Positions 4,033 through 40,261 are shown, counted from the first letter of the stretch. The stretch is 64,000 nucleotides of DNA from an uncultured Candidatus Peribacteria bacterium (GCA_964343715.1 CAYFJZ010000005.1:8220-72219), one strand, 5' to 3'. Made by a program: numbers and translations. Notes: a model not told the origin generated them from the sequence alone.

Positions 4033-4072
4033 TACTGATCAATATTCATACAAAGATATTACCTACCCCATA

Positions 4073-21195: not shown

Positions 21196-21272
21196 TGGTG
21201 GGCGATACAGGATTCGAACCTGTGACCTCCTCGGTGTAAACGAGATGCTCTAGCCAGCTGAGCTAATCGCCC
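21196..21272 (-). tRNA. tRNA-Val (anticodon TAC), CCA encoded
   Basis: The reverse complement is gggcgattagctcagctggctagagcatctcgtttacaccgaggaggtcacaggttcgaatcctgtatcgcccacca. It folds as a cloverleaf with anticodon loop tttacac. Confidence 0.9.
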
Positions 21273-23589: not shown

Positions 23590-23826
23590 GTCATCCCGAG
23601 GGCCTTCCTTCTAAATAAAAAATATGATGGTCATCCCTGTGGGAATCGTCAGGGTTCTATGTCAAATCAGGCAACAAATTTGGCTTGTAACACCAACATA
23701 GAGAACGAGAGTTTCACTCCCCATGATGTATACATATCCTTCTTTATCACCCATGCTTTAGATCATAAGGAGGATCCCTCATTTTGTCGACGTTCGTTTC
23801 AAAACGGTCCGTTATTCGGGATGACC
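23590..23826. mobile_element. MITE-like non-coding element bounded by GTCATCCCGA inverted repeats (copy 1)
   Basis: The left end is gtcatcccgagggcc and the right end is ccgttattcgggatgac. Its interior matches 41908-42092 in inverse orientation (gagggatcctc palindrome; acatagaa..ctgacgattc block). No ORF. Confidence 0.55.
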
Positions 23827-23923
23827 ATGATTTATATTCTTTCCTCCCAAATAATGATCAAAACTCCCCCAAAACCTTGTTTTTTCACCAAAATCATGAT
23901 AAAATACACAGAAAACAAAAAAA

Positions 23924-24748
23924 ATGAAAGACCTAAAAGTCTTCGTCAACCAATCTTTTGCTCCTTTTTGTAAAAAAGAGGGAAACGTCGTAACCGCTAC
24001 CGAACACAGTATCGAGACCGAAACCGCGATGAACGTGCTCGAATTTATGGCCCACGTACGAACGTACAAAACCCCCGACTACCTCTGGGACAAGATGAAA
24101 AGCGCTTCTTTTGTTCGACTCCAACAAATCGCTACCGTCATAAATTTTGATCCCACTAGTTATTTCTGTAACTGGCCAATGATGTGCAAGGTCCTCAATC
24201 TCGATGCCGGGATTTTTGGACACGGTGGCGACATCAACTACTACGATGAAGAAAGCGTAAACACGCTTCAAAAGTGGTTTACCGAAGTGGTTAAACTGAC
24301 CCCCGAAAGAATAAAAGAAAAAGAAGTCACCCTCGAAGACGTATTGGCTCAACATCTACAAAAAGCCCCAACCGTCGAAGAGACAAAAGCCGTTCCTGCC
24401 TCTGAAGGCACTCCAGAAGTGGACGAAACAAAAACAATTCGAATGAAAACCGCCCTGAAACAGAAAAAAGAAATCAAAAGTCGAATTACAGCACTTCTAG
24501 CAAGACAAATAAAAACCACCGCCATAAAAGTAGAATCAGGCGACACTTTGGGCGGAATAGTTTTTGCCCTCAAAGACATTTTTTCTTCCTACAACGTCCC
24601 TACTCCGGATTTTGGATGGCACACCCCAGTTAAAATCAAAAACGGACCTCAGGGCGAATTATTGATCGAAAAAGACTTTCCCCTCACAGAAGGACAAACC
24701 GTACGCCTCGAAATTGAAGGGGAAAAAGTTTCTATCGTAGTGGAGTAG
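23924..24748 (+). CDS. hypothetical protein (possible weak LysM-like segment near the C-terminus)
   Basis: 274-aa ORF with ATG at 23924. IKVESGDTLGGIVFAL only loosely resembles LysM. Confidence 0.5.
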   Translation: MKDLKVFVNQSFAPFCKKEGNVVTATEHSIETETAMNVLEFMAHVRTYKTPDYLWDKMKSASFVRLQQIATVINFDPTSYFCNWPMMCKVLNLDAGIFGHGGDINYYDEESVNTLQKWFTEVVKLTPERIKEKEVTLEDVLAQHLQKAPTVEETKAVPASEGTPEVDETKTIRMKTALKQKKEIKSRITALLARQIKTTAIKVESGDTLGGIVFALKDIFSSYNVPTPDFGWHTPVKIKNGPQGELLIEKDFPLTEGQTVRLEIEGEKVSIVVE

Positions 24749-24864
24749 TCCCCTATTTACTACGGTCCTCTACTGATTTTACGCGAGCGATTTTTTTATA
24801 ATGTATCGCTCAATAATCCGTCTTCGCGATTCGCTAAATAACTTTTAATAGCTTCGCCGGATAA

Positions 24865-24901
24865 CTAAAAATTTGGCCTTCCACAATCCATGTGGAAGGC
24901 C
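24865..24901 (-). terminator. rho-independent terminator downstream of the SLT gene
   Basis: ggccttccaca-atcca-tgtggaaggcc forms a perfect 11-bp stem. On the minus strand it is followed by AAAUUUUUAG. Confidence 0.75.
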
Positions 24902-24924
24902 CATTCCTGATTCAACCGAAAGGA

Positions 24925-25881
24925 TCATCGACCGGCCCCTTTTTGGTGAGGAACACCTTGTTCCCAAACCATAAAATGGTGCAGTACACGATTCCCAAAA
25001 TCGGGATCTCCCTTTCCATATTGTCGGGTCAAAGCCGGAGCCAGTTTGTTGAATCCATGCTTGGTCACGAGCTTTTTCAACGCCTTGCCCATTCGGGTAA
25101 TATCTTTGGGACGTTTGAGACGAAGTTCATAGACCAACCCCGCCAAAACACCCACAAAGGTATCGGCTACACAAGCCGCTTCGCTGACATTCGCGACCAT
25201 ACGCACATTCCAGAGTTTGAAATACGCACGATCAACCGACGGATACACCGCACGGTTCATGCACTTCTGCAAGCGACGCCATTCGGCAATATGCCCCATT
25301 ACAAATTGAGCATATTCCCAGGGATGACCATCGGCCCCATAGCGGTTTGAAAGAATTCCGCCTTCTCCGCCATTGTAGCCAGCAAACATCCGATCCCACC
25401 GGCCATCAAATTGGCGATGCATCAGGGCCAAATAACCCACTCCCGCATGAATATTACGTTCGGGGATTACTCGTTCGTCTTGGGCACGTTTGGAACGCGC
25501 CTCAAATGCCCGTAAACCAAAAGCCCGAGCCGCCGGAGCACGCTCCTGCATCAGACCAACAGCCGGATCACGCTTAAGCTGTGATTCGACCTTGGGATTA
25601 TAATCGCTCTCACGCTTCATAACCCCGTTGACCATCTCCACTGTTACCAATCCCCGCACCCGAAGGCGTTGAGGAGGGGCACCGGGAGACGATCGATAGA
25701 TGGTGAATTCCTGACAGACTTCATGCGCGATAAAATCGGCATACGTCTGCCCCCTTTTGAACCGTCCTACATACCAAGCACTTCGTGCCTCTTGGTAGCA
25801 GGTCTCATACGCTGGATCTGTTGCTGCCTGAGCAGAAAAGCTCGGCAACAACATCACCAGCATCAACCAAAAATACCGCAT
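24925..25881 (-). CDS. secreted lytic transglycosylase (SLT domain; VirB1-like in architecture)
   Basis: Signal peptide MRYFWLMLVMLLPSFSAQA. SLT motifs are KRESDYNP...AVGLMQ...AGYNGG. GGAGGGAG lies upstream of the ATG (GGAGG core 8 nt). G+C-rich, G-ending codon usage. Confidence 0.75.
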   Translation of the reverse strand: MRYFWLMLVMLLPSFSAQAATDPAYETCYQEARSAWYVGRFKRGQTYADFIAHEVCQEFTIYRSSPGAPPQRLRVRGLVTVEMVNGVMKRESDYNPKVESQLKRDPAVGLMQERAPAARAFGLRAFEARSKRAQDERVIPERNIHAGVGYLALMHRQFDGRWDRMFAGYNGGEGGILSNRYGADGHPWEYAQFVMGHIAEWRRLQKCMNRAVYPSVDRAYFKLWNVRMVANVSEAACVADTFVGVLAGLVYELRLKRPKDITRMGKALKKLVTKHGFNKLAPALTRQYGKGDPDFGNRVLHHFMVWEQGVPHQKGAGR

Positions 25882-26035
25882 AACCGCTCCCTCCGTTGGG
25901 TTGAACTACTAAATGAATGAAGAAGATCCTCATCTCTTTGAATCAGGAAAAAGAGACAAGGATTTCTCCACTCAGAAAATCAACAATGTTGACAATATGG
26001 ATAATTATATAAAAGATCAATATTTTGTATAGCAT

Positions 26036-26063
26036 ATGACACAAAAATGTCAAACAAAACATT
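26036..26063 (-). promoter_or_regulatory. candidate sigma70-like promoter for the SLT gene (TTGACA-N16-TATACA)
   Basis: On the minus strand, ttgaca (26058-26063), a 16-nt spacer and tataca (26036-26041). Confidence 0.35.
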
Positions 26064-26239
26064 GACTATATTCAATTTTTATGATAGAAAGAGAAAGATC
26101 TTTGACAAAATTCTCTTTGAGGCTGCCTTGGGCTTCTAGAAAATCCCCTTTCTAACCGGGGAAAACCTTTTCTATAAGCTCAGAGCGAACCTCGAAGAGC
26201 CCCAAAACAACCCCCAATACCACATCCCAGGAGGGACCG

Positions 26240-26698
26240 ATGAAACGACGTTTTTTGTACCTTATTTCCGGCCTTTGGCTGCTCACACTCAGCGGATGCG
26301 CCATGTTCGGCGGGGAACCCCCCGAAGCCAACAACAGCGCTCCACAACCAGTACAAGGCGAAGCTCAGGCTCAACAGGTGGTCGATGCACAACCACCATC
26401 CCCAACCAACGCCGCTGCACCTCCCCCCCCTGCTGTAAAGGGCACATGGGAAAAAATGAACATCCCCTATATCCAGAATTCTTCACGAAAACTCTGGGAA
26501 GGGATTTATTTGATCTGCGGCGAATGGGAGCAGTGCACAGTGGTGAGCAACACCATTGCCCGCCTCGTTATCCGCCAAGAAGTCGGCGGCAAAGCCACCG
26601 TCTGGATCGACTCGGAAAAACGGTTGGTCGTCTCCTACGCCATCTTTGGCCGCGGAAAACAGGCCAAACATATGGTCGTGTTGCACCACAAGAAGTAG
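26240..26698 (+). CDS. lipoprotein, unknown function
   Basis: Lipobox LLTLSGC; Pro/Ala/Gln-rich linker. AGGAGGG lies upstream of the ATG (GGAGG core 5 nt). Followed by a strong terminator. Confidence 0.7.
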   Translation: MKRRFLYLISGLWLLTLSGCAMFGGEPPEANNSAPQPVQGEAQAQQVVDAQPPSPTNAAAPPPPAVKGTWEKMNIPYIQNSSRKLWEGIYLICGEWEQCTVVSNTIARLVIRQEVGGKATVWIDSEKRLVVSYAIFGRGKQAKHMVVLHHKK

Positions 26699-26727
26699 TG
26701 CACACAAAATCCGGGGCTCTTCGAAAG

Positions 26728-26762
26728 CGCTTGTCAGCTACAGCTGGCAAGCGTTTTTTTTA
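26728..26762 (+). terminator. rho-independent terminator
   Basis: cgcttgtcagc-taca-gctggcaagcg (11-bp stem with one G-U pair) followed by T9. Confidence 0.85.
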
Positions 26763-26820
26763 CATCTACAGATTATTACTAAACCCCAAAAGTAATACTT
26801 CCCCCCAAAAAATAACTTAA

Positions 26821-26872
26821 AAAAACAAATAGTGAAAACCCCTGGTTAGCAAATCCTTTGCTATACCAGGGG
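26821..26872 (-). terminator. rho-independent terminator for 27004-28005
   Basis: The minus strand reads CCCCUGGUAUAGCAAA-GGA-UUUGCUAACCAGGGG followed by a U-rich tail (uuuucacuauuuguuuuu). Confidence 0.6.
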
Positions 26873-27003
26873 TCGAGAGTGTCCAGAGGGTGAAAGGCCA
26901 AGGGGAGCTATGAAGCGCCCCCCTTCGCCCGTGCCAAGCGGCACCCCCTCCAAAGAGAGGGAGGAGGTAACCGCTGTTGTAGCCCCACTCGGGGAGTGGG
27001 GGC

Positions 27004-28005
27004 TTAGGATTGGGGGCCGGAAACCCGAGCACGGCAGGTGGCCGCACGGTTTTCCTTGGACTCCAGGAGCCCAATGCCGTCCATGCAGTTGTTGAAGGCC
27101 ACGTTGGAGGCAGAAGCACCACCCGCGTTTTTTTGCGAGACGGCCTGCTTCTTCTTCTGCATGGCGCGATACTTGTCAGCCATGGTGTTGCCGCCGACAT
27201 TCAGGCCATTGGCAACGTTGACACGACCAGCGTTCTGCAACCGCATGGAGCGGGCCTTATACAGAGCGCTGGCGCGCTGCTGCAAGCGGGTGGGAGCCGT
27301 GAAGTTCTCATGCTTGAACTTCACAGTACCAGTCCGCTTTTCGACCCAGGTCATGGCCGCAACCGGCGCATGGTCAGCCGCAGCCGGATCAACCTCACCG
27401 ATGTAGGGCATGCCCATGGAGGTGTAGTTGAAGCTGCCATCATTACGCATCAGGACGCACTCGCGATTGTCCTCGGCGATGTTATTGATGGCCGCACCGG
27501 TAGGCTTGACGAAGCAGACCGAGCGCTCTTTGTCGCCCTGCTCATTGCTGAGCGAGGTCAGCCAGACGGTGATGGTGGAGGCGTCGGCATAGGTGTCGGC
27601 GCGATCCACAGCGTTCAACGGCGCCGGAAAGCCATCACTGTCCGCCGACTGAGCTCCGACAGGCGCAGCGCCACCAGTCCCACCGGGGGCCTGACGCGGC
27701 ATGTACTGGGAGTTCAGGTTCTGCAGCTTGCGATCCAGGATCTTGCCCTGGATGGAGCGGGTGTCCTGAATGGACTGAATGGCCCCAGACTGCGCCTGAA
27801 AATCCTTGGCCAAATCCCAGGACTCCTGCGCCTTGGCGTTGAAGTAGGTCTGCTGCGTCTTGGGCACATTGGTGTTGGGCGTCGGCGCATCGCCGAAGCC
27901 ACCGCCAGCAAAGGCGGCACCGGAAATGGTCATGCCCGCAAAGAGCAGACCGGTCATAAGGGTGCGGCTCAGGCCGCGTTTGTGATTCTCAACGTTGTAC
28001 GACAT
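27004..28005 (-). CDS. secreted hypothetical protein (island)
   Basis: 333-aa ORF with signal/TM LMTGLLFAGMTISGAAFA. GAGGAG lies 8 nt upstream of the ATG. The 339-aa antisense ORF (27010-28029 +) is R/G/L/V-rich junk typical of high-GC antisense. Confidence 0.7.
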   Translation of the reverse strand: MSYNVENHKRGLSRTLMTGLLFAGMTISGAAFAGGGFGDAPTPNTNVPKTQQTYFNAKAQESWDLAKDFQAQSGAIQSIQDTRSIQGKILDRKLQNLNSQYMPRQAPGGTGGAAPVGAQSADSDGFPAPLNAVDRADTYADASTITVWLTSLSNEQGDKERSVCFVKPTGAAINNIAEDNRECVLMRNDGSFNYTSMGMPYIGEVDPAAADHAPVAAMTWVEKRTGTVKFKHENFTAPTRLQQRASALYKARSMRLQNAGRVNVANGLNVGGNTMADKYRAMQKKKQAVSQKNAGGASASNVAFNNCMDGIGLLESKENRAATCRARVSGPQS

Positions 28006-28447
28006 AATGGTAACTCCTCATCAAACTGATCAGTTAGAACGTTCACTACATAGGGAGGCTTTCTTTATCGACCCTCTGGACAGAAAGCCCAATCACTTCA
28101 CAATGACATCCTTGCCATCCTTGAAGCTTGTCCTGCTCATCGATCGATGGACAAAACAAGCCCCAAGAAAAAGAAAGTCATCTAAAGCAATATAAAGCTT
28201 TCCATTAAAGGGTCGATAATTTGCGAAATTGTCAAAGAGCCAAACGGAACAGAGGGCGGCTTAAAAGCACCTTCTTTTTCGTTTTTTTATTTTGTATTTT
28301 TTCCTCTATAAAGTTTTCCCAGTAAAAGTCAAGCTTTTTTTCTAAAAAAACCGGAGTGCACTCTAAAAGGACCTCTTAAAAAAAGCAAGCTTTTTTGAAA
28401 TGAATTTTCAAAGTCTCGCTTAACATAGGCTCTAAGCCGATTTTCAT

Positions 28448-28477
28448 AAAAAAAAAGGGACCGCTTGGTGCGGCCCC
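28448..28477 (-). terminator. rho-independent terminator for 28508-29314
   Basis: The minus strand reads GGGGCCGC-ACCAA-GCGGUCCC followed by U9. Confidence 0.8.
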
Positions 28478-28507
28478 TCAAAAAGTGGTGGCAGAAAAGA
28501 TTCACCC

Positions 28508-29314
28508 TTACGGGCAGTTGTGTCGATTCGAACATTTTTGAGAACGAATCCCATTACCACGGGGAACGTTCCGCATATCGATCGGCTTGTTGGGGTTCTT
28601 CAGGTGAATAGACGACGCCTGGGTCGGATCAAAGCCATAGACCTTACGCGACGAGTTCCGGGCATGGAAGTAGCCATCACAGGCAAGATGCGGATACTGA
28701 CGCCCGCCTTTGGAATTGATCGCCTTGTAGAAATAGCCCGGATCGGTGTCGCATACAAAGGTGCCCTCAGGCTCGGCTCCGCCGCGATTTTTCAGGAGGC
28801 TCATCTGCATCCCCGTCTTTCTCACAAACACGCCCGACTTACGAACCATGTTGCGATCCGGATTCTCCGGCCACGGAATATAGACCAGATCATCCCGAGG
28901 ATAATCATCCAACGGCGTCCGAGTATCGGGAATCAGTCCTCCGTCCCCGTTCTCCAAACATTTGCCCGTCTGACCGTTTTTCTTGCAGACATAAACGTCA
29001 AACGGCCAATTGATGGTGATCATCTTCACCAGAGGTCCAGGCAGCTGGGTCTCATCATCGTTTACCGGATTATTCTGGACAACACACTCACCATCGGAGT
29101 TCTTCACTCCCACGCTGCCATTGCCCATCACACAGGGTTCGACTTTGGGCTGTGCGCTCTCCTGCACTACCCCTGGTTGTTGGCCACCAGAAAACATCTT
29201 GGCCGCCAGGTTAAAATGAATGAATCCCCAGGCCATCAGGCCCAAGAGAATCGCCACGAGAATCCAGGCCAGATGGCCCCGGATCCACTGATACATCCTG
29301 TTCAGTTTGTCCAT
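28508..29314 (-). CDS. bitopic Cys-rich hypothetical protein (island)
   Basis: 268-aa ORF with N-terminal TM LAWILVAILLGLMAWGFI and about 10 Cys in the extracytoplasmic part. GAGGAG lies 8 nt upstream of the ATG. Confidence 0.7.
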   Translation of the reverse strand: MDKLNRMYQWIRGHLAWILVAILLGLMAWGFIHFNLAAKMFSGGQQPGVVQESAQPKVEPCVMGNGSVGVKNSDGECVVQNNPVNDDETQLPGPLVKMITINWPFDVYVCKKNGQTGKCLENGDGGLIPDTRTPLDDYPRDDLVYIPWPENPDRNMVRKSGVFVRKTGMQMSLLKNRGGAEPEGTFVCDTDPGYFYKAINSKGGRQYPHLACDGYFHARNSSRKVYGFDPTQASSIHLKNPNKPIDMRNVPRGNGIRSQKCSNRHNCP

Positions 29315-29486
29315 TTCGGTTGCTCCTCACGAGTACGAGATTCGAGAAATGTTTCAATCTTTTCTGTTACATCCACACGAAGCCAGCTTCCGTCCTTTTC
29401 AAAAACAAAGAACGGACCAAAAGCAAAAGCTTCGTTATGGACGCACAATACGAGTTATAAAAGAACGTACTTGTATAAGTATGTAT

Positions 29487-29515
29487 CTTATATAACATTT
29501 TTAACTAAAAGTCAA
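29487..29515 (-). promoter_or_regulatory. sigma70-like promoter (TTGACT-N17-TATAAG)
   Basis: On the minus strand, ttgact (29510-29515), a 17-nt spacer and tataag (29487-29492), upstream of 28508-29314. Confidence 0.45.
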
Positions 29516-29541
29516 GCCAAAAGGCTACCCAAGCACCAATC

Positions 29542-31617
29542 TTACAACTTATCAAGCATGTTTTCTTTCAGCTCCGAATAGTCGTCAAAATAGTACCATT
29601 CCCCTTCTTCGCCCATTCGAGCTCGATAGTCATATTGAATTGCATTCCATCGAGAACTTCCGTCTTCTTCGGCTTTTTCATACGTCGCTTCTTCGACCTG
29701 TACTTTTTGGGCCCCTTTGAGATTCAAAATCTGATCCAATACCTCCAGAGGGAGTTCTTGGGACCTCAGACCTGGAAACGCTCCCAAAGCCCGCAAAAAG
29801 TGCTCTCCGGTCAAAGAGGTCTCAGGATGTTTTTTTATCTGTTCATCATGCCGAGCATAAAAACTAGTCAAAACATCTAAGAATGGTTTTATCACCGCAT
29901 CATCATGAACATCCGACTCCCCACTTCCATCATCCAAAGAATACATTGCGCTTTTAGCTCTTTTTGGTACCTGATAAGCCTGCTCTCCCACTTTGATATG
30001 GAATCCATCCAGACCGATATCCAACCGGTCTTCTGTGTGACGATTCGCCGCCTCTATCCCATCATTATAAGCCTCCACTCTCGTTTTGTAAACTTTAAAT
30101 TGCTCCAAAAATAGTTTGTACCGAGCCAACAAACGAGCATAAGAAGGAATACCCCCTTTCCCATAAATTCCACCTTGCTCCAATATCAAACCAATTTCTT
30201 TAAGGGCATCTCTTTCTTTAACAAAATGACTCTGCCAACGATTCCATATATCATTCCCTTTGTCTGATCGAGCCGTTTCAATAAAAAACACTTCCCGATC
30301 TAAGTGAATCAAATCAGCCGGCAACAACTTCTTTCGCTTTTTTTCGATCAAAGAACGAACATCGTTCTTAAATAGATTGTATTCCTTCAGCAGCTCACGA
30401 TCTACATGAACATTATGTTTCGATACTCGAGCTTCAAGCCGCTTTACATCCTCTTCTGTACGAGCTTTATTAATCTGCTCAATTATAGCCGTTCGCTCCT
30501 TTTTGGCTGATTCAACCTTTCCCTTTACCTCCAAATATTGCTTTCTCAAACTAAGAGGAGTAATTTCTTCTTCTCTGAGCGGAGAGATAGAATCCTCAAC
30601 CAATTCAGGAACCCCCAGCCAGGCCATTTTCATGGTATTTTCCATCTCTTTAATTTTGGGGATGAGATCCGGTGACAAAGGCTGTACCTTTACTGTTTCT
30701 TTTGGTTTTTTTACCGGTTCTGGATTCGGAGCAGGCTTCTTTTCATCAGGATTTTTGACTTTTGGTACCGGTACCTCACCAGGTTTTGGTTTTGTTGAAG
30801 GTGCTGCCACAGAAGGAACCGGAATTTCTATCTGTTTCCTTCCAGGTTTCTCCGTCGGCGTTGAAGTAGACGGTTTTTCTTTTTTAGGAGGTTGATTCAA
30901 AACTGGAGGATGAAGACGAACATAAGTTTGTTTTTTTCCGGCCTTCTGATCGCCTTTATCTGGCACCGCAGGCGTCGGAACCGGAACAACCTGCGGAGGG
31001 GTTGAGGTCTTGGGCTCCGCACTTGGCGCCTTGTAAGGAGTTGGTGCGACAGGTTCAACAGACGGCGCACACTCCCCTGGCCTTTCTTCGACCACCGATT
31101 CCATATGAGGCAGTTCTCCCGGAGCGTACTTATCCGCTACCACAACTTTGTTCCCCTCCAACCACACATACTGTCCCGAATAAATCAAATTCGCCTTGGC
31201 CAAAACTCTCCCAGGATTTCGATCCATCTGCTTCAGAAGCTGATTTATTTTTCGCTTGTCATTGGTAAAGTTTCGATACTCAACCTCCATGCCATAACTA
31301 AATCTCTCACCGGCTTTTTTGGATAACCCCAAAGCAATTGCCCCCAATCCAGAGTAGTCTCGAGGTTTTACCTGATGAAAATCCCCCTCCATTCTCGAAA
31401 TTTGTCTCGCTCGCTCATTGGCCAATCGTCTTCGACGTTCTTTTACCGAGGTTTCTACTTTTTTGAGATCCTTTTTTACGTGAGACTTTACCTCCTGTAC
31501 TTGGCTTTCTGGACCACACAGCGGTACACGTTCTTGTTTTGGTTTTTGTTTTTCCGAAAGAAACAAAAAAGCGCCTAGTCCCCCACTTCCATTCTGATAT
31601 CGAGTGATTTTTTTCAT
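29542..31617 (-). CDS. large hypothetical protein with Pro/Lys-rich central linker
   Basis: The ORF runs to 31722, but a terminator hairpin occupies 31684-31720, so I prefer the ATG at 31617 (MKKITRYQNGSGGLGAFLFL). No SD. Composition is closer to native genes than to its island neighbours. Confidence 0.6.
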   Translation of the reverse strand: MKKITRYQNGSGGLGAFLFLSEKQKPKQERVPLCGPESQVQEVKSHVKKDLKKVETSVKERRRRLANERARQISRMEGDFHQVKPRDYSGLGAIALGLSKKAGERFSYGMEVEYRNFTNDKRKINQLLKQMDRNPGRVLAKANLIYSGQYVWLEGNKVVVADKYAPGELPHMESVVEERPGECAPSVEPVAPTPYKAPSAEPKTSTPPQVVPVPTPAVPDKGDQKAGKKQTYVRLHPPVLNQPPKKEKPSTSTPTEKPGRKQIEIPVPSVAAPSTKPKPGEVPVPKVKNPDEKKPAPNPEPVKKPKETVKVQPLSPDLIPKIKEMENTMKMAWLGVPELVEDSISPLREEEITPLSLRKQYLEVKGKVESAKKERTAIIEQINKARTEEDVKRLEARVSKHNVHVDRELLKEYNLFKNDVRSLIEKKRKKLLPADLIHLDREVFFIETARSDKGNDIWNRWQSHFVKERDALKEIGLILEQGGIYGKGGIPSYARLLARYKLFLEQFKVYKTRVEAYNDGIEAANRHTEDRLDIGLDGFHIKVGEQAYQVPKRAKSAMYSLDDGSGESDVHDDAVIKPFLDVLTSFYARHDEQIKKHPETSLTGEHFLRALGAFPGLRSQELPLEVLDQILNLKGAQKVQVEEATYEKAEEDGSSRWNAIQYDYRARMGEEGEWYYFDDYSELKENMLDKL

Positions 31618-31683
31618 CAGGATTTTTTTAAATTCCAAAATAAATCCCCACATTATATCACATTTCAATGTTTGATACAATAG

Positions 31684-31720
31684 AAAAGAGCGTCGTCTCC
31701 ACAAAGGGAAAACGACGCTC
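31684..31720 (-). terminator. rho-independent terminator for 31795-33060
   Basis: The minus strand reads GAGCGUCGU-(15-nt loop)-ACGACGCUC followed by UUUUCUAUUG. Confidence 0.6.
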
Positions 31721-31794
31721 ATTGGCCAGTATTAGAGATTGGATCGGAGCAAAACCGGAGGGGCTTCCTGCCCCCCCAGTTTCGCATCCGTACA

Positions 31795-33060
31795 TCACCA
31801 GGGCCCCATAAAACGTTCCAAACGCTCCTGGGGCGTCAAAGCCCTACGAGGCGGAGGTGCAGCCTGTTGCTGCACCGGAGGTGCTTCGGCAACCGGATTT
31901 ACCGCCTTTTCGTAGGTATCGACCATGGCGGCATAACGAGGATCGCCATACAGAATTTCGAAGATCCGAACAGGCTTGTCCCCATGCTCATCATAGTAGG
32001 GATCCCGTTTCGGAAAAATCACGCGATACTCAGTTTCAACGGGTCTGCCACCAGGCTTATTGGGGCGAAAGAAAGTTCCATACAAAACGCCGCCCTCTTG
32101 AGGCCCGATATAACGAAAACCGGGCATCTTAGAACCGACATGGCACCCTCCAATTGAACCCGTACAATGTAGATAGAGGCCATACAGAAGCGGGATATCT
32201 ACCCCAAACTCCAGCATGCCTCGTTCTCCAGCAACAATTGGCCGTCTGGAGTCCACACGAGAAACCAGATAAGTCCGTTGCCCCGGACGGGCCAACGAAA
32301 CATTTCGGCGACCAATCATCTTCCACATTTTACCGTCCTCGATATGGCGATTAAAACGACGAAGACGGTGTTTATCCGACCCCAAAACCAAGTTGTAGCC
32401 CTTAGGCCGTTTATCCAAATCCTTCAGGTGGTGGCCTCCGATACTCTTCCAAACTGGCTGTAGGTCTGTGTCAATGACCAGGTATCCACCAGTATCCCCC
32501 AAACCAAGAGAAGCCCTTGGCTGGTAGACGACCTCTTCACCAGTATGGTCGAGAGGGCGAAACCGGAGATCGAAGGGGATGTGACCACCAGGACTGTTTT
32601 GCCCTGCCGGCCCCTGAGCCACCTGTTGGTCTTGACCTTGCTGACCCTGGCCCTGTTGATCCTGAGCCTGTTGGCCTTGACCTTGTGGACCCTGGCCCTG
32701 TTGAGTCTGAGCCTGTTGGCCTTGACCTTGTGGACCCTGGCCCAGTTGAGCCTGATCCTGTTGGCCTTGACCTTGTGGACCCTGGCCCTGTTGAGCCTGA
32801 GCCTGTTGGCCTTGACCTTGCAGCTGCTGAGCCATCTGTCGAGCCTTGTCCTCCTCGGATTGGCTCGGCGGAGGCACGACGTTCTGACCACCAGAGGGAG
32901 ATTCTCCATCATCTTGATCAAAATCGCTGACTTCCGGCGGTTCCTGTTCGTCAGCATATGCGGCTTCGTCCTCCTTAGACCAGCCGCCAGCTTGGGTTGA
33001 AGATAACGGGGCCATCAAAAAGAAAAGCCCCAGACAAAATAATACAAATGCTCGGTTCAT
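31795..33060 (-). CDS. secreted protein with Gln/Gly tandem repeats (island)
   Basis: Signal peptide MNRAFVLFCLGLFFLMAPLSSTQA, then an acidic stretch, (GQGPQGQGQQAQxQQ)n repeats and a globular C-terminal half. GGAGG lies 5 nt upstream of the ATG. Confidence 0.7.
   Translation of the reverse strand: MNRAFVLFCLGLFFLMAPLSSTQAGGWSKEDEAAYADEQEPPEVSDFDQDDGESPSGGQNVVPPPSQSEEDKARQMAQQLQGQGQQAQAQQGQGPQGQGQQDQAQLGQGPQGQGQQAQTQQGQGPQGQGQQAQDQQGQGQQGQDQQVAQGPAGQNSPGGHIPFDLRFRPLDHTGEEVVYQPRASLGLGDTGGYLVIDTDLQPVWKSIGGHHLKDLDKRPKGYNLVLGSDKHRLRRFNRHIEDGKMWKMIGRRNVSLARPGQRTYLVSRVDSRRPIVAGERGMLEFGVDIPLLYGLYLHCTGSIGGCHVGSKMPGFRYIGPQEGGVLYGTFFRPNKPGGRPVETEYRVIFPKRDPYYDEHGDKPVRIFEILYGDPRYAAMVDTYEKAVNPVAEAPPVQQQAAPPPRRALTPQERLERFMGPW
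32620..32829 (-). repeat. in-frame 45-nt tandem repeat (about 4 units) encoding GQGPQGQGQQAQxQQ
   Basis: Near-identical units are visible in the plus-strand sequence, e.g. cctgttggccttgaccttgtggaccctggccc. Confidence 0.8.
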
Positions 33061-33218
33061 CGATTCCTCCTTCCACCCAGATGGGCGGAATTGATAGGTT
33101 GTTTACATATCCAATCTCTTACTGGGGCCATCCCCGATACTGACACCTTCCATGGGTCCAATATCGGAGAACACCCCAATAATAAATCATTTTGTCAAAG
33201 AACACTTCTACGTTTTAT

Positions 33219-33247
33219 TCATATATCAAATTTAAGCAAAAAAGTCA
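33219..33247 (-). promoter_or_regulatory. sigma70-like promoter (TTGACT-N17-TATATG)
   Basis: On the minus strand, ttgact (33242-33247), a 17-nt spacer and tatatg (33219-33224), upstream of 31795-33060. Confidence 0.45.
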
Positions 33248-33362
33248 ATACAATCTTTTTCGAAATTGATCAAAAAAATTACTCACAATAAAAAGATCCG
33301 CCCTTCATCGCACAACAACGTGTGCAACAAAGAGCGGAAAAAAACGACAACGATTTGTTGTA

Positions 33363-34418
33363 TCAGCACAAAAAGGCGGTAAACCCGCGTACCCTCTTCA
33401 GCGCCCGAGCCGCTTCTTCATTGTCCTCGGGCAAATGCCGCTCGACCTCCTGAAGCCAACCTTCCAGTTCATCTTCAGCCAGAGCCAGACGCAACGCCCC
33501 GCCAGTGATCGAAACCATCAACGGATGGCCCTCGGGAAGGGTCGAATAAAGACCATCCTGGACCGTTGGGGCGTACATCTCCAGCCCCTTGTGCAAACCG
33601 ACCAGCTGATAACTCAGGCTCTTCCGAGACTCATCATGGTATTTTCTCAGCCATTCAACCGCCTCTTTCCGAAGCCAGGAAGCCATAATCCGATCAAACT
33701 CCTGCTGGCGAGAAAAACGCCCCAGAAACGGCCACCCAAGACGGGTGTAGAAGACTTCCAAAACCGGGAGATTATTAAACTGGATTTTGGAGTTGCTAAA
33801 GAGCAGCCGAGTAAGCGCTGAAGCAAAAGTATCCTTCTTCCGCGCCTCTATATTCCAGGCATTCTTAAATTCCTTGAGCGCACGACGCTGTGGGGTATTC
33901 AGGCCCAATTTCCAAAGGCGAAAAAAGACCCCCAAAAAACCTACAAACAGCACCAATCCTCCAGCCATCACCGCCTGGTGAATCGGCGGAAAAGCCAGGA
34001 CCCAATCCTGCGCTTCTTTCCAGCTCTGAAAAGCCGGCGGAGAGAGATAGAGGGCGCCCCCCCACAGAGCCAAGGCGACAAAAGACACCACCCAGACCCC
34101 CGCCATAAGACCGCGCATAGAGGCCAAAAGAATGCGCACCAACCACCACAGGCCTCCCCACAAAACCACCGCCGCCCCCCAGATGATCTGTGATGGAACA
34201 TCCAGTCCCATAAAAGTGGTCCCAATTTCTTGGGCCCCCTCCAGAGAGTAGGGATGCTGCCAAAAGGTGGCCGCAATCAGAAAAGCTGTTGAAACCCACG
34301 CCAAGAGCACATAAATCCACAACATCCATCCCCCATAAGAGGACGCGACATCAGGGATTTTACGATTTTCCCAGGCGTACCAATCATCAATCCTCAATAC
34401 TTCATCTTCAATTTTCAC
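33363..34418 (-). CDS. polytopic membrane protein with cytoplasmic C-terminal domain (island)
   Basis: 351-aa ORF with a GTG start and GGAGG 8 nt upstream. At least 5 Trp/Gly/Leu-rich TM segments are followed by a soluble domain of about 170 aa. Confidence 0.65.
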   Translation of the reverse strand: MKIEDEVLRIDDWYAWENRKIPDVASSYGGWMLWIYVLLAWVSTAFLIAATFWQHPYSLEGAQEIGTTFMGLDVPSQIIWGAAVVLWGGLWWLVRILLASMRGLMAGVWVVSFVALALWGGALYLSPPAFQSWKEAQDWVLAFPPIHQAVMAGGLVLFVGFLGVFFRLWKLGLNTPQRRALKEFKNAWNIEARKKDTFASALTRLLFSNSKIQFNNLPVLEVFYTRLGWPFLGRFSRQQEFDRIMASWLRKEAVEWLRKYHDESRKSLSYQLVGLHKGLEMYAPTVQDGLYSTLPEGHPLMVSITGGALRLALAEDELEGWLQEVERHLPEDNEEAARALKRVRGFTAFLC

Positions 34419-34582
34419 GAGAATATCCTCCTATAGATACGTGATTCTTCCTAGTTCATTAATCATTAACAAATCGATACCGCAAAGAGCTGTTTTGTGA
34501 GACGCACAATACGGCATCTAAGAAATGAGTAACGAAAATCATTAAAAATGTCAAGCCCCCCTCTTTTTTATCAAGTAAAAAA

Positions 34583-34617
34583 ATGAAGCATGAATCATGA
34601 ATCATGAAGAATGAATC
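34583..34617. repeat. degenerate heptamer tandem array (CATGAAT x5)
   Basis: atgaagc atgaatc atgaatc atgaaga atgaatc. This is the first native-type repeat to the right of the island. Confidence 0.7.
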
Positions 34618-34640
34618 AAAAACAAAAATTCAGAAAGAAA

Positions 34641-34663
34641 GACGCAATATATTGCGTCCCTAC
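34641..34663 (-). repeat. REP-like GTAG hairpin
   Basis: gacgcaatatattgcgtc-cctac; the same family as 4709-4732 and 36852-36876. Confidence 0.6.
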
Positions 34664-34705
34664 AAGATAACTACTTACTCTTTGTTCTTTGTTATTCACT
34701 CATCC

Positions 34706-35470
34706 CTATCCCTCCATAAGATCAATTTCTGGTTTGATTTCTTCTTCTTGCAAATTGTCTTCCGGCCCACCTTGAACATAAATTTTATTCACATCTTCGA
34801 GCTTCTGATAACGCGAAGCCTCAGGATTATAGGCCTGATACATCAGCTCGATAATCTGCTCGGTCTTAAGCGGATTAACCTTGAGTCCACAGTTTTCAAG
34901 CCCCGTCTGAACCACATTCACACGCACATCAAGTTTATCGCGTAATTGGTGAAATTCCTTCTTACGCTGAATAACATCCAGCACTTTGTCTTCGGGGGTA
35001 ATATACTTCAAAAAGTCAGCAATCATCCCCTTTTTCTTGGAACGCAAAGGGGTATAAGGCACCACCACAAAAAATCGCTTTTCCATAATGTCGGCACTCT
35101 CAACCAGGCGTTGAATAAACTCGATATGCTCCACCATCTGCGCTTTGAGGAGATCGTTTTGCTGACGCTCCTTTTTTTCATTGAGGCTATCGATGTAGGG
35201 ATCAATATCCAACTTTCGAGAGCGCACCATAATCTGAACCGGAAAATCCAAAGCGTTCAGAAAATGCTGAAAAGACATAATCAGCGCGTTTTGCTCCTGT
35301 TCAGACTTCAGATCAAAATTAACCGCCCCCACCTCTAAAATCGCTCGTAGGCCTCCGTCTTTGAGCACCAAAGTATCATCATGAACCCCCGCAAATTGCA
35401 AATAACGCTGAGTAGAAAGCAGCTTATTGGGCTTTTTATTATTTACAGACTTGTTATCGCGGGTACTCAT
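34706..35470 (-). CDS. VirB4/TrbE-like protein, N-terminal domain only (no ATPase domain; truncated or split gene)
   Basis: HDDTLVLKDGGLRAILEVGAVNFDLKSEQEQNALIMSFQHFLNALDFPVQIMVRSR parallels the VirB4 N-terminus as I remember it (IVLLEDGSIMTMARIDGVAFELEE...FNTLLRNI...). The ORF stops after 254 aa with no Walker A. The downstream DNA is repeat-filled and non-coding. Confidence 0.6.
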   Translation of the reverse strand: MSTRDNKSVNNKKPNKLLSTQRYLQFAGVHDDTLVLKDGGLRAILEVGAVNFDLKSEQEQNALIMSFQHFLNALDFPVQIMVRSRKLDIDPYIDSLNEKKERQQNDLLKAQMVEHIEFIQRLVESADIMEKRFFVVVPYTPLRSKKKGMIADFLKYITPEDKVLDVIQRKKEFHQLRDKLDVRVNVVQTGLENCGLKVNPLKTEQIIELMYQAYNPEASRYQKLEDVNKIYVQGGPEDNLQEEEIKPEIDLMEG

Positions 35471-35525
35471 GGAGCAGGATATTTATTTTTAGTATTAGGG
35501 TATCTAGTATTCAGTATATTTTTCT

Positions 35526-35969
35526 CTAGGCATTTGGGGAAGACGCACTCAGGTCTACTTTGCCCACAATATCTTTCAGATGATCATCATCAAGACGTTT
35601 GATCACTATTTTTTGAGGCTTTTTCTTTTTGTTTGGAGAATAATTGGTCGTCAGAGAAACAAACTTTTCTCCGCCCCCCTGAATCCAGTATCGGCGCGGA
35701 GGACGAAAGAAAAAATATTCAATCATCAATAGTATAAACTGAAACAGAGCAATTCCCTTAATCGTTATAAAAGCAAAAGCCACCGAAAGCAATGCCGGCA
35801 ACCAAACAAGGAAATAGTCAAAAAGATTGAGCTCATAGTTTTTGCTCAGGTTTACAAACAACAAATACGAGATCCCTCCCCCCACCAACAAAATAATAAA
35901 CTGCTTAAACGTCAGAAACCACAAGATTCTGTCTTCTCGTTGGACGTTCTGAGGAACTTTATACTGCAT
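35526..35969 (-). CDS. PrgI-family (VirB3-like) membrane protein
   Basis: From the ATG at 35969: MQYKVPQNVQREDRILWFLTFKQFIILLVGGGISYLLF.... This is the PrgI pattern (VP....ED+I...LT..Q) followed by two TM helices, immediately upstream of the VirB4-like gene. Confidence 0.65.
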   Translation of the reverse strand: MQYKVPQNVQREDRILWFLTFKQFIILLVGGGISYLLFVNLSKNYELNLFDYFLVWLPALLSVAFAFITIKGIALFQFILLMIEYFFFRPPRRYWIQGGGEKFVSLTTNYSPNKKKKPQKIVIKRLDDDHLKDIVGKVDLSASSPNA

Positions 35970-36017
35970 AGTTTCAAAAATTCTCAATATTCTACCACAA
36001 AAGGAGGCCGCAAACAA

Positions 36018-36118
36018 GAGGAATAAGGAAGTAGGAATAAGGAATATGGGGTAATGAAACAATTAAATGGTTTACCTCTTGGAGTCCCTTATTCCTTATT
36101 CCTCATACCTAATTCCTC
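36018..36118 (+). repeat. about 100-nt long-hairpin element built from GGAATAA-type heptamers with a 34-nt apical loop (copy 1)
   Basis: Arms are gaggaataaggaagtaggaataaggaatatgggg and cccttattccttattcctcatacctaattcctc. The loop contains gtttacctcttggagt. It is homologous to 38381-38488. Confidence 0.7.
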
Positions 36119-36777
36119 TCACCACTGACTAATTTCCCCGCCACCACCACCCCATAAACCTCCTTAACACCAGCTTTTTTCAATATTTTCGCAGCCGATT
36201 GCATCGTAGCGCCAGTCGTCACCACATCATCCACTAAAACCACAACATTGGGCCATTTTGTGCCTTTCTTTACTTCAAAAACCCCCTGCACATTAATCAA
36301 ACGTTCTTTTTTGGTCAGCTGTGCCTGAACACGAGTTTTTCGTCGTTTTACCAGTCCATCACACACTTTACCCCACCCTCTTTTTTCCATTCCCAAAGCC
36401 AAAATCTGACTCTGATTAAATCCCCTCCACATCAAACGAGTCCGATGAAGCGGAATGGGAACCAAGACCACATGATCAAATTTTTTATTCACAAAAAAAG
36501 GCGTCATGCCTCTCAAAAGATAATCCTCCATCCCCCGCCCCCCACGATACTTAAATATTTCAATTAAGCGCTTCACTCGGTCATCGGCATAATCGGTCCC
36601 CACCCAAACGCTTTCAAGCCCCTCCAAAGATCGTCCCAAATATGATCCTGAAGGAAAATCCCCATGAACCTCACACAACCAACTCCCCTCTCGATCACAG
36701 ACCAAACACTTCGCCGGAAAAACCGCCTCAAAAAACCACCCAAAAGCCCTCCTCATCGCTCTTAAAACACTTTTCAT
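36109..36777 (-). CDS. comF: ComF-family phosphoribosyltransferase-domain protein
   Basis: N-terminal Cys motif (CLVCDREGSWLCEVH) and a PRTase motif (VVLVDDVVTTGATMQSAAKILKKAG). Confidence 0.8.
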   Translation of the reverse strand: MKSVLRAMRRAFGWFFEAVFPAKCLVCDREGSWLCEVHGDFPSGSYLGRSLEGLESVWVGTDYADDRVKRLIEIFKYRGGRGMEDYLLRGMTPFFVNKKFDHVVLVPIPLHRTRLMWRGFNQSQILALGMEKRGWGKVCDGLVKRRKTRVQAQLTKKERLINVQGVFEVKKGTKWPNVVVLVDDVVTTGATMQSAAKILKKAGVKEVYGVVVAGKLVSGERN

Positions 36778-36904: not shown

Positions 36905-37396
36905 CTAACGATAATGCTGGAACCCTCCCGCCCCAGGATTCATATTTCCAGCCTTTTGCTGACCCGTATCTATCAACTGAGTGATCTGAGAGATAATCTG
37001 GTCGTATGAAATATAGTTCATAAAATCAAAACCAAACATCTTTCCGACAATTGAAACCGCGAAAAAACTCATAATCGTCACAATCAACCCCACAATTGCG
37101 TAACGAATGGTGTTTACGGCCTGTTTTACCTTTTCGTCGTTTCCTCCCGAAAGAATAAAACTCATTCCCCCCACAAATACAAAAACGGCCGAAAGAGCGG
37201 CCGCAATAATAAAGGCGTACACCACAAACATCATCACAATCTCCTGAATTCCCCCATCAAGAGCATATTTGGTCTTGGGGACATAAACCGCTTGCTCCTG
37301 TCGATATCCCTGACTCGGAGCAGGATTCGTACGGGTATAAGGGTTGTTGTACGAATCATTATTGTACTGAACTGCCGGTGGGTAGGTATTGGCCAT
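36905..37396 (-). CDS. VirB2/TrbC-like (T4SS pilin-type) membrane protein
   Basis: Two TM helices joined by a short loop (VFVFVGGMSFILSGGNDEKVKQAVNTIRYAIVGLIVTIMSFFAV), the hairpin typical of T4SS pilin-like proteins of CPR genomes. The N-terminus is Asn/Pro/Tyr-rich. Confidence 0.6.
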   Translation of the reverse strand: MANTYPPAVQYNNDSYNNPYTRTNPAPSQGYRQEQAVYVPKTKYALDGGIQEIVMMFVVYAFIIAAALSAVFVFVGGMSFILSGGNDEKVKQAVNTIRYAIVGLIVTIMSFFAVSIVGKMFGFDFMNYISYDQIISQITQLIDTGQQKAGNMNPGAGGFQHYR

Positions 37397-38380: not shown

Positions 38381-38488
38381 GGGAATAAGGAATTAGGAAT
38401 AAGGAATTAGGGGTATTTAAACAGCCTTTGCTGTTTACCTCTCGGAGTCCCTAATTCCTAATTCTTTATTCCTTATTCCTTCACTCTT
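38381..38488 (+). repeat. about 100-nt long-hairpin heptamer element (copy 2) in the rpsP/glmS divergent region
   Basis: Arms are gggaataaggaattaggaataaggaattagggg and ccctaattcctaattctttattccttattcc (about 31 bp with 3 mismatches). The 34-nt loop is tatttaaacagcctttgctgtttacctctcggagt. Confidence 0.7.
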
Positions 38489-38515: not shown

Positions 38516-40261
38516 ATGTGTGGAATCTTCGCCATTTCCGGCCCCGATCAAAATGCAGGAGCCACCGTGCTCGAAGGACTCAAAAGACTCGAATATCGCG
38601 GATACGATTCTTGGGGAATCTCTATCCGACACAATGGCCAACCCATACACTTAGAAAAAGACATCGGAAAAATCTCCGAAGTAAAAAAAGAATTCCCAAC
38701 CGGGCACGAAGCCCTCGGCCACTCCCGATGGGCTACCCACGGAGGAGTTACCCAACAAAACGCACACCCTCATCAGGCCGGCAAAGTCACGCTAGTACAC
38801 AACGGTATTTTTGAAAACTATCTCGAAGTAAAAGAAAACCACCCCCACCACAAATTCCAATCCGAAACTGACTCAGAAGTTATTGCCGTCCTCATCAACC
38901 ACTTGATAGACGAAGGTCTTTCGCCTCAAACCGCTATCCGTCAGAGCGCCAAACAAATCGTAGGTCGTTTTGCCATTCTCGTCACCATCGATGGCATTCC
39001 AGGCATTTTTGCCGCCCGAAGAGGATCCCCTCTTATTATTGGACGAGGCGAAGACCGTACTTTTATCGCATCAGATATTCCCGCCTTTTTATCGGAAACC
39101 AACATCGTCAATTATTTAGACGACAACGAAATGGTACACATCCAAAACCAAGAAGTAACTTTTACCGATCTAGAAAGCGGCCAAAAAAAAGAAAAAAGAA
39201 ACGTCGAAGTTCCCTGGAATCTCGAAGAAGCCGAAAAGGGAGACTATCCCCACTTCATGATCAAAGAAATCTTCGATCAAAAAGAAACCATTGCCCGAGC
39301 CATCAACCAAGATCCCGACAAAATCAATGAAGCCATTGATCTATTAGTGCATTCCAACGGAACATACTTCATTGCCTGTGGAACCGCCCACAAAGTCGCC
39401 AAAGCGGCCGAATATTTCTTTTCCGAAATATCAGGACGAAAAATAAACGTAGTCCCAGCCTCTGAAATGGCCTATTTTGAGAATTTTGTAAAAGAAGGCA
39501 CCGCCGTAATCGCCGTTTCTCAGTCGGGGGAAACCGCCGACGTTCTGGAGATCCTCGAAAGAGCCAAGCTCAAAGGCGCCAATATATTGTCGCTCACCAA
39601 CGTCGAAAGCTCGTCGATTGCTCGAATATCAAACGTAGCGCTTCCCATAAACGCCGGCCCCGAAAAAGCCGTCGCTTCAACCAAAGCCGCCACGAGCCAG
39701 ATGGCCTTGCTCTTTCTGCTCGCTCATGCCGACGCCGGAACTCTCGCCCTGGCCCAACAGATTCTTTCCTCCGTCAGCGGAAATATAAACGACATGATCA
39801 ATCCCCGCTACGAAGATCATATCCAGTCTATCGCCCGAACCATTGTCGATCACGAAAATCTTTTTATCATCGGTCGAGGCTCTCTCTATCCCATGGCGCT
39901 GGAAGCCGCCATCAAAATCCAAGAAGTTTCTTACATTCACGCCCAAGGATTTGCCGCCGCCGAACTCAAACACGGCCCTATCGCGCTGATTACCAATGGC
40001 ACTCCCTGTTTGGTACTGGGATCGGACCGAGAAACGGTCTCCAATGCGATCGAACTCAAGTCTCGAGGCGCCCGAATTATCGGTATCGCGCCCGAAAACG
40101 CCGAAGTCTTCGATCAGTGGATCCGAGTTCCCGACGCCAACGGCGCTCAACCTATTGTTTCCATAATTCCCGTACAAATACTGGCCTACCATCTGGCCAT
40201 TCTAAAGGAACTCAATCCCGATACCCCCAGGAATCTGGCAAAATCGGTGACGGTGAAGTAA
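38516..40261 (+). CDS. glmS: glutamine--fructose-6-phosphate aminotransferase (isomerizing)
   Basis: MCGIFAISG N-terminal nucleophile, HSRWATHG, two SIS domains (SQSGETADV) and a C-terminal ...LAKSVTVK. Confidence 0.95.
   Translation: MCGIFAISGPDQNAGATVLEGLKRLEYRGYDSWGISIRHNGQPIHLEKDIGKISEVKKEFPTGHEALGHSRWATHGGVTQQNAHPHQAGKVTLVHNGIFENYLEVKENHPHHKFQSETDSEVIAVLINHLIDEGLSPQTAIRQSAKQIVGRFAILVTIDGIPGIFAARRGSPLIIGRGEDRTFIASDIPAFLSETNIVNYLDDNEMVHIQNQEVTFTDLESGQKKEKRNVEVPWNLEEAEKGDYPHFMIKEIFDQKETIARAINQDPDKINEAIDLLVHSNGTYFIACGTAHKVAKAAEYFFSEISGRKINVVPASEMAYFENFVKEGTAVIAVSQSGETADVLEILERAKLKGANILSLTNVESSSIARISNVALPINAGPEKAVASTKAATSQMALLFLLAHADAGTLALAQQILSSVSGNINDMINPRYEDHIQSIARTIVDHENLFIIGRGSLYPMALEAAIKIQEVSYIHAQGFAAAELKHGPIALITNGTPCLVLGSDRETVSNAIELKSRGARIIGIAPENAEVFDQWIRVPDANGAQPIVSIIPVQILAYHLAILKELNPDTPRNLAKSVTVK

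Follow-up and report, generated by a model that had tools for sequence, protein, structure and literature searches.

Horizontal gene transfer into lineages belonging to the Candidate Phyla Radiation (CPR) has been documented, with 126 horizontally transferred genes having been inferred in Vampirococcus lugosii (PMC8080830), and Peribacteria have been reported to encode many exported, Cys-rich proteins (PMC4736985). The locus described here bears comparison with both. It lies in a 64,000-nucleotide stretch of DNA from an uncultured Candidatus Peribacteria bacterium (GCA_964343715.1 CAYFJZ010000005.1:8220-72219; the window, in which positions are counted from the first nucleotide) and comprises six genes for predicted exported or membrane proteins of 152-421 amino acids, each led by a Shine-Dalgarno (SD) motif. 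Recent horizontal acquisition of these genes, in two blocks and as six independent transcription units, is the favoured reading, at a probability of about 0.65; approximately 7.5 kb of DNA, at ~24.87-29.52 kb and ~31.69-34.56 kb, is accordingly regarded as probably foreign. The two blocks flank one gene of native composition and lie directly downstream of a block of genes for a pilin, a ComF-type protein, PrgI and a TraC-like protein.

As in the islets described from CPR/Patescibacteria (PMC8080830), foreign genes would reside here in a reduced, symbiont-type genome, with many being surface-related or of unknown function. The present case differs in that transfer is inferred from composition and translation signals, without a donor homologue or phylogeny, and in that the contrast between SD-led and SD-free genes, along with a missing strand skew, provides an unusually clean signal. 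The island proteins also resemble the exported proteins of Peribacteria (PMC4736985) in their predicted export and lineage restriction, and the predicted extracytoplasmic part of one of them (p268) contains 8 Cys. Those proteins, however, were described as native, whereas the island proteins are encoded by genes of foreign composition that carry SD motifs.

A first-pass annotation of this DNA had placed six open reading frames (ORFs) between 24925 and 34418, and all of these are present. It had likewise attributed an export feature to every product, which hydropathy and the N-terminal sequences bear out in all six: three have signal peptides (cleavage at AQA-A, AFA-G and TQA-G), one has a lipobox, one an N-terminal anchor, and one 4-5 transmembrane (TM) segments. 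The island and its middle gene are laid out as follows.

24875-24901, minus strand: terminator after SLT318, a hairpin (11-bp stem with 7 GC pairs; fold z = -3.9) plus T-run, at the left edge of block 1
24925-25881, minus strand: SLT318, predicted secreted family-1 lytic transglycosylase (Pfam SLT and motifs; SD ggagg; GC 52%; four-fold skew -0.09)
26240-26698, plus strand: lip152, predicted lipoprotein (lipobox LSG-C; SD aggagg; GC 54.7%), the sole plus-strand gene of the island
~26724-26761, plus strand: lip152 terminator, a hairpin (z = -4.6) then T8
27004-28005, minus strand: p333, predicted secreted protein (signal peptide ending AFA-G; GC 60.7%, and 0.77 at four-fold sites)
28455-28479, minus strand: terminator after p268, a 10-bp stem then T9
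28508-29314, minus strand: p268, predicted membrane-anchored protein (SD aggag; one N-terminal TM helix, residues 10-28)
29488-29516, minus strand: promoter-like site upstream of p268, TTGACT-17-TATAAG, read from the sequence and putative in function
29542-31653, minus strand: middle gene, of native composition, Pro/Lys-rich and lacking an SD (703 amino acids by the gene call on Logan contig L001)
31757-31777 and 31688-31720, minus strand: two hairpins after p421, with a T-run (z = -6.6), at the lower edge of block 2
31795-33060, minus strand: p421, predicted secreted protein (SD aaggagg; signal peptide ending TQA-G; Q/G-rich 15-residue repeat)
33297-33338, minus strand: terminator after p351, an 18-bp stem plus T-run (fold z = -6.4)
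33363-34418, minus strand: p351, predicted polytopic membrane protein (SD aggagg; GTG start; 4-5 TM segments in residues 30-175)
34554-34526, minus strand: promoter-like site upstream of p351, TTGACA-17-TACTCA, at the upper edge of block 2

The junction of block 1 with native DNA falls within 24749-24874. Native features resume just past the upper edge of block 2, with a heptamer array (34583-34618) and a hairpin (34640-34659). The C-terminal domain of p421 comprises ~270 residues, and the C-terminal half of p351 is hydrophilic (~170 residues).

The use of SD motifs sets these genes apart. With an SD scored as a core of 5 nt or more ahead of the first start codon, 6/6 island genes have one as opposed to 2/39 of the others in the window (Fisher p = 3.4e-6), which confirms the earlier description of SD-led genes in otherwise SD-poor surroundings. 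The spacing to the first start codon is 3-6 nt by script and ~5-8 nt by direct reading. The two native genes with a core are the ComF-like gene at 36109-36777 (gaaggagggaATG, strong) and PrgI (weak). Related loci, defined as those around the same conserved TraC-like neighbour gene, were available for comparison (71 for the SD count and 80 for tblastn); an SD core precedes 17/1020 ORFs there, and none of the high-GC ORFs. Within the limits of these data, the entire lineage does without SD motifs, so six SD-led genes in succession are exceptional. Internal SD-motif depletion, taken as a proxy for anti-SD activity, gave z-scores of -0.3 and -1.9, and no 16S rRNA 3' end was found in the window or the fetched related loci.

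A different type of leader is seen elsewhere in the window. Upstream of the genes at 11496-12947, 13678-15129, 38516-40261 and 60709-61788 are C/T-rich leaders ending in ccctttctcATG or in cctccttcATG. These resemble an anti-SD rather than an SD sequence, and may represent a lineage-specific initiation signal.

Composition provides a second body of evidence. The reference was the window's own 64 kb, and the six island genes were compared with the 39 other genes in it, which include glmS, S16, YbaB, YceG, VanW and a radical-SAM enzyme. The window, part of a contig of 208,637 bp, has a GC content of ~44%, and C exceeds G on its plus strand throughout: the GC skew is between -0.04 and -0.49 in every 1-kb bin, does not change sign across the 64 kb, and at four-fold degenerate sites is ~-0.48 regardless of gene orientation. 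Because third-codon G and C track the DNA strand rather than the orientation of the gene, the window is under strong strand-specific mutation bias. Native genes have a four-fold-site skew (plus strand) of -0.48 +/- 0.15, whereas the five minus-strand island genes give -0.09, +0.33, -0.11, +0.03 and -0.21. This missing skew is the strongest argument against a native origin, since the bias affects every other gene on both strands.

The GC content of the island genes is 52.0-60.7% versus 39.1-49.0% for the 39 others (p = 2e-7); the ranges are disjoint, and the claim of a G+C-richer island therefore stands. Codon usage was scored as the synonymous-codon log-likelihood per codon under a same-strand native model. 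Native genes average -1.015 on this scale (sd 0.055, minimum -1.129). The island genes range from -1.12 to -1.47; all are outside the native range except lip152, which is at its edge. Codons GTC, GGC, CGC, ACC, TCC, AGC, CTG and CCG are used more often, and GGA, CGA and AGA are avoided. The preference for G-ending codons described previously survives in part: CTG and CCG are enriched, but GTG and GCG are not when compared with same-strand native genes. A TGA stop terminates 3/6 island genes versus 2/39 native genes. The long ORFs antisense to the island genes, at 27010-28029(+) and 28520-29581(+), do exist.

Stop codon usage in the native genes (n = 39) is TAG 19, TAA 18 and TGA 2, a rarity of TGA that is notable near the code-25 Gracilibacteria. 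In-frame TGA does not interrupt the long native genes, and the genetic code is therefore the standard one.

As suggested at first reading, the middle gene is native-like, with a GC content of 43.5%, a codon log-likelihood of -1.06, a four-fold skew of -0.43 and no SD. Its longest ORF encodes 726 residues (p726), but the 5' end of this frame (31654-31722) overlaps the 13-bp-stem terminator hairpin (31688-31720) of the upstream gene. For this reason, the true start is probably 31653, which gives the 703-residue product of the Logan call, or 31617. No significant match to the middle gene was obtained in the family libraries or among Protein Data Bank (PDB) sequences.

Each island gene appears to be furnished with its own expression signals. 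Hairpins are found 3' of 6/6 genes, with z-scores of about -2.7 to -6.6 relative to shuffles, and five are followed by a T-run, in agreement with the terminators reported earlier; 3' of p333 are GC-rich hairpins without a T-run. Read from their SD motifs and individual hairpins, the six genes are predicted to be separate transcription units. This arrangement, along with their heterogeneous composition, does not sustain their description as a module. The candidate promoters carry no weight as a signal, as sites of this type occur at chance frequency (12 found versus 12.8 expected from shuffles).

The exact 13-mer CGTATTGTGCGTC (minus strand) has only two copies in the window, at 29440-29452 and 34501-34513. 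Each is situated 80-125 nt upstream of the first gene of its block and just downstream of a TTGAC(T/A)-17-TAnnnn box, and the two blocks may share it as an operator or leader element. An extended head sequence common to the two was considered and rejected, as only this 13-mer is shared.

Repeats of the native intergenic DNA had been said to be absent between 24.9 and 34.5 kb. This holds for the heptamer arrays; GGACGCAA and GTCATCCCGA have only 3 copies each in 64 kb, and their absence is weightless. The arrays consist of 3-5 tandem copies and are found in native intergenic DNA at 4069-4098, 13517-13542, 34583-34618, 36019-36046 / 36087-36117, 38382-38411 / 38450-38481, 53410-53437 and 60677-60710. 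Two cases are inverted pairs (AGGAATA / CCTTATT) flanking gene starts.

Among the island products, only SLT318 can be assigned to a family. The lytic transglycosylase domain recognized in 24925-25881 is recovered as Pfam SLT (PF01464) over residues 81-177, with 58.1 bits against a gathering score of 21.3 and E = 8e-16. The signal peptide ends at AQA-A, and the catalytic residue would be E91 (codon 25609-25611), with GLMQ at 109-112 and AGYNGG at 167-172. Its RE91SDYNP aligns to QE478SAWNP of Slt70 (1QSA), and the GLMQ and AYNxG motifs also align; SLT318 is thus a predicted family-1 lytic transglycosylase with intact catalytic motifs. It resembles the Slt70 / PF01464 / GH23 enzymes in its ES (E91), GLMQ and AYNxG motifs and its Sec signal peptide, but differs in that identity is only ~25-38% over ~95 residues. 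No match was obtained for the N-terminal 60 or the C-terminal 140 residues, and a word-indexed search of 5.8 billion proteins returned only SLT318 itself, with no relative at E = 1e-3.

The five non-SLT island proteins have no significant match in Pfam, NCBIfam, PHROG or PADLOC; in PHROG, only p351 and the native-composition p726 gave marginal matches (E 0.04-0.08). When 1.84 billion representative proteins were scanned in full with HMMER, p333, p268 and p351 each recovered only the query itself, and the C-terminal part of p421 recovered nothing. The PDB sequence search found nothing significant for p333, p268, p351, the C-terminal part of p421 or p726, and megablast of the island against plasmids gave no nucleotide match. 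Single-sequence AlphaFold2 models have a mean predicted local distance difference test (pLDDT) score of 34 for the C-terminal part of p421 and 45 for p268, in which only the N-terminal TM helix is confident. When tblastn was applied to the 80 related loci, no island protein was matched. Window proteins that were looked up, glmS among them, are alone or almost alone in their own 90% cluster.

Within the p421 gene, the 15-residue repeat is encoded by 4.4 copies of a 45-nt tandem unit (32622-32820; 93% matches). It is because of this tandem repeat that the exact p421 sequence is missing from the protein collection. Logan contigs L001 and L091 both end inside it; the copy number is consequently uncertain and may vary.

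The genes bordering the island on its upper side form a conserved native block and provide the context.

34706-35470, minus strand: TraC-like protein (VirB4 N-domain only, PF26593)
35526-36062, minus strand: PrgI
36109-36777, minus strand: ComF-type phosphoribosyltransferase
36905-37396, minus strand: type IV secretion system (T4SS) pilin

The TraC-like protein has 254 residues, its family being of ~245 residues with more than 1000 homologues and 47 invariant alignment columns, and homologues 55-64% identical are found in Candidatus Peribacteria, Gracilibacteria and Altimarinota genomes. Together with the standard genetic code, these affinities assign the organism to the CPR/Patescibacteria as a Peribacteria-type member. 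The closest relatives (L004, L006 and L008) retain the block glmS / S16 / KH / pilin / ComF / PrgI / TraC-like, and its S16 / KH / T4SS pilin / ComF / PrgI / TraC-like part extends across 80 Peribacteria, Gracilibacteria and Altimarinota genomes (L010-L089). A separate VirB4-type ATPase (610-656 residues) directly follows the TraC-like gene in only four distant loci (L070, L083, L088 and L089). In the other loci none is present within +/-10 kb, and tblastn with the CPR VirB4 ATPases (610-656 residues) found nothing in the window. The island had been said to adjoin a truncated T4SS locus. This is contradicted by a TraC-like protein that is full length for its family and by a block that relatives keep in the same form; truncation of VirB4 by the island was likewise rejected, as the 254-residue protein is complete. 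The ATPase-less "truncated" state is, judged from these gene orders, old and lineage-wide.

Gene content downstream of the TraC-like gene is variable. L004 and L006 have there, besides an SLT gene, a gene for a small TM protein and one of the RhuM family; L008 has lexA and recA. The SLT genes of the two relatives (L004 12617-13534 and L006 12473-13381) encode 302-305 residues and are situated 1.6-1.9 kb downstream of the TraC-like gene. They share with SLT318 the domain, position and orientation relative to the conserved block, but are of native composition, have no SD, and are only 26% identical to it (domain), compared with ~60% for PrgI and the TraC-like protein. Rather than orthology, the relationship is consistent with foreign DNA having taken the place of a native segment that included SLT. 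Such a gene occurs only in these two closest relatives among the 64 loci with enough flank, and SLT after TraC-like was rejected as a lineage-wide feature, as was a regular multi-TM (VirB6-type) partner (2/66 loci). A 158-residue ORF of 66% GC in L006 (4781-5257), itself a relative of 39% GC, could be either a structured RNA or a gene of foreign origin.

Taken together, SD use, GC content, codon choice, the missing four-fold skew and the TGA stops agree, and for this reason a foreign origin is favoured. The horizontal acquisition proposed at the outset is upheld by these five signals, by the absence of the island proteins from the 80 related loci, and by assemblies that speak against a chimera (see below). 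The proposed diderm donor is not retained, its basis being that the SLT domain is weakly similar (31-38%) to transglycosylases encoded at VirB1 positions in proteobacteria and to T7-like virion proteins.

Several observations weigh against this reading. The loss of C>G bias ascribed to the whole island is true of the five minus-strand genes, but lip152 is native-like, with a four-fold skew of -0.62. Tetranucleotide usage, which had been proposed as a check, singles out only 27004-28005 (z 6-8), this p333 gene being the most foreign of the island by composition, and 31795-33060 (z 4-5); the remaining 4/6 genes are within the background. Composition differs from one island gene to another, so that several events or sources may be involved. 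No mobility gene (integrase or transposase) was found in the window with Pfam, NCBIfam or PHROG, and there is no tRNA target (the nearest, tRNA Val at 21196-21272, is 3.5 kb away) and no convincing flanking repeat. No donor or homologue was found for the island proteins searched, hence there is no phylogenetic proof of transfer. Finally, the three nearest relatives carry other genes downstream of TraC-like, but even the nearest is only 64% identical in TraC-like, so that none provides a genuine empty site.

If the genes were acquired horizontally, they probably entered through DNA uptake followed by illegitimate recombination, a default guess made in view of the missing integrase, tRNA target and flanking repeat. 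The products would leave the cytoplasm by Sec, with three processed at signal-peptidase-I sites, one becoming a lipoprotein, one N-terminally anchored, and one polytopic. At the envelope, SLT318 would cleave the N-acetylmuramic acid-N-acetylglucosamine (MurNAc-GlcNAc) bond of peptidoglycan via Glu91, and it may assume the role of the native SLT gene found downstream of the block in the two closest relatives. The other five would be surface or membrane proteins, most plausibly engaged in cell-surface remodelling or contact with another cell.

Alternatively, these could be native, fast-evolving genes for surface proteins, with their SD motifs, codons and GC content arising from a special expression regime or local selection. 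Peribacteria do encode many exported, Cys-rich and lineage-specific proteins (PMC4736985). The native-composition neighbours p726 and the 274-residue gene are equally without a match by tblastn in the 80 related loci and in family and PDB libraries, the clearly native ComF-like gene has a strong SD, and the tetranucleotide signature is unremarkable in four of the six genes. This explanation is nonetheless unlikely, as five of the genes lack a four-fold skew that is a mutational signal in every other gene on both strands. An expression level would hardly account for C-ending codons on a G-rich coding strand or for different Arg and Gly codons, and the nearby gene for ribosomal protein S16 shows none of these features. 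Additionally, TGA stops are enriched, and SD motifs are near-absent from the 71 related loci, where no high-GC ORF has one.

The position of the island directly downstream of T4SS-derived genes raises the question of whether it encodes divergent, diderm-type envelope parts of such a system beside the native pilin, PrgI and TraC-like genes. Sizes and membrane topologies fit a VirB set, in which SLT318 would correspond to VirB1, lip152 to VirB7, p333 to VirB9, p268 to VirB8, p421 to VirB10 and p351 to VirB6. Among plasmids, the SLT domain matches best to WP_249850119.1 of Acinetobacter pDETAB14 (38% over 98 residues, E = 8e-8), the gene for which is just upstream of VirB2/VirB4 in an MPF_T system. 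The best matches are on proteobacterial plasmids, and 55/72 of the matching plasmids are conjugative. As with this VirB1-type protein, the SLT318 gene adjoins T4SS-type genes; the match, however, is weak and confined to the domain, and the window is without a VirB4 ATPase, VirB11, VirD4 or a recognizable VirB6/8/9/10. Neither Pfam, NCBIfam nor the PDB reveals VirB6/8/9/10 similarity in p351, p268, p333 or p421, even at E = 0.1 to 1, and in NCBIfam the families nearest to the SLT domain are Slt70 and MltC rather than VirB1. The plasmid collection is itself biased to T4SS-linked SLT genes, and the structure models are too poor for fold comparison. Moreover, each gene would be its own transcription unit, with one on the opposite strand, and a VirB7/9/10 core would need an outer membrane, which a monoderm CPR cell lacks. 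Island-encoded T4SS parts are therefore a doubtful proposition, less credible than native genes.

A related and similarly doubtful possibility is that the six proteins were not imported at random but form a foreign envelope toolkit, added to the native pilin-PrgI-TraC-like apparatus that lacks an ATPase and substituted for the SLT-containing segment native to the relatives. Its parts would be a transglycosylase of VirB1 type, a lipoprotein, and bitopic and polytopic membrane proteins whose sizes and topologies recall VirB7/8/9/10/6. If so, a hybrid surface machine would let an episymbiont breach or dock onto a possibly diderm host, and the retained SD would give these transcripts privileged translation in an SD-free genome.

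A phage source was also considered, in the form of a prophage remnant or a phage-derived, lysis-type cassette of a transglycosylase endolysin, membrane proteins and a lipoprotein. Among the PHROG endolysin and internal-virion families, the SLT domain matches phrog_669 (E = 3.6e-9), and it bears a weak, domain-limited resemblance (~31% identity) to internal virion proteins of T7-like phages. Proteins without homologues are typical of phage, and the combination of lipoprotein, bitopic and polytopic proteins superficially recalls spanins and holins. The products are, however, several times larger than holins or spanins, and the genes are monocistronic with their own terminators, which is not cassette-like. 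No phage structural, replication or integrase genes accompany them, none of the five non-SLT proteins has a significant PHROG match, and scans of IMG/VR with p333, p351 and SLT318 found no relatives. A phage origin is thus very unlikely.

As coverage of the borders had been raised as a safeguard against a chimeric assembly, the window was compared with single-run Logan assemblies.

Logan contig L001, run ERR2281802: window 23719-32691, 100% identity
Logan contig L002, run ERR2281803: window 23719-27555, 100% identity
Logan contig L091, run ERR2281802: window 32766-36100, 100% identity

These three contigs jointly span all four block borders and reproduce them exactly; the sole gap between them (32692-32765) is inside the 45-nt tandem repeat of the p421 gene. 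Despite the metagenomic origin of the sequence and the sharp change of composition at the borders, the joining of a higher-GC organism's DNA to a CPR contig during assembly or binning is exceedingly improbable, because assemblies of two separate runs together match the window across every border, the only gap is a tandem repeat within one gene, and the native gene between the blocks would require four independent false joins.

The Logan contigs break at one further element, outside the island. Inverted copies of a GTCATCCCGA-containing element occupy 23590-23842, between the VanW gene and the 274-residue gene (arms 23613-23637 and 23818-23842); L003 ends at 23641 and L001 starts at 23719.

If horizontal acquisition is the correct reading, a reduced CPR genome would have gained genes in a clean, datable import. 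The imported genes would be recognizable by translation signals unused in the recipient lineage and by lacking the strong strand mutation bias of their new genome. A wider principle would be involved only if the island proteins work with the neighbouring pilus-type genes. The finding does, however, raise the question of whether the ribosomes of an SD-free Peribacteria lineage can use SD motifs, and it presents five predicted exported proteins and a divergent lytic transglycosylase as candidates for host-contact functions.

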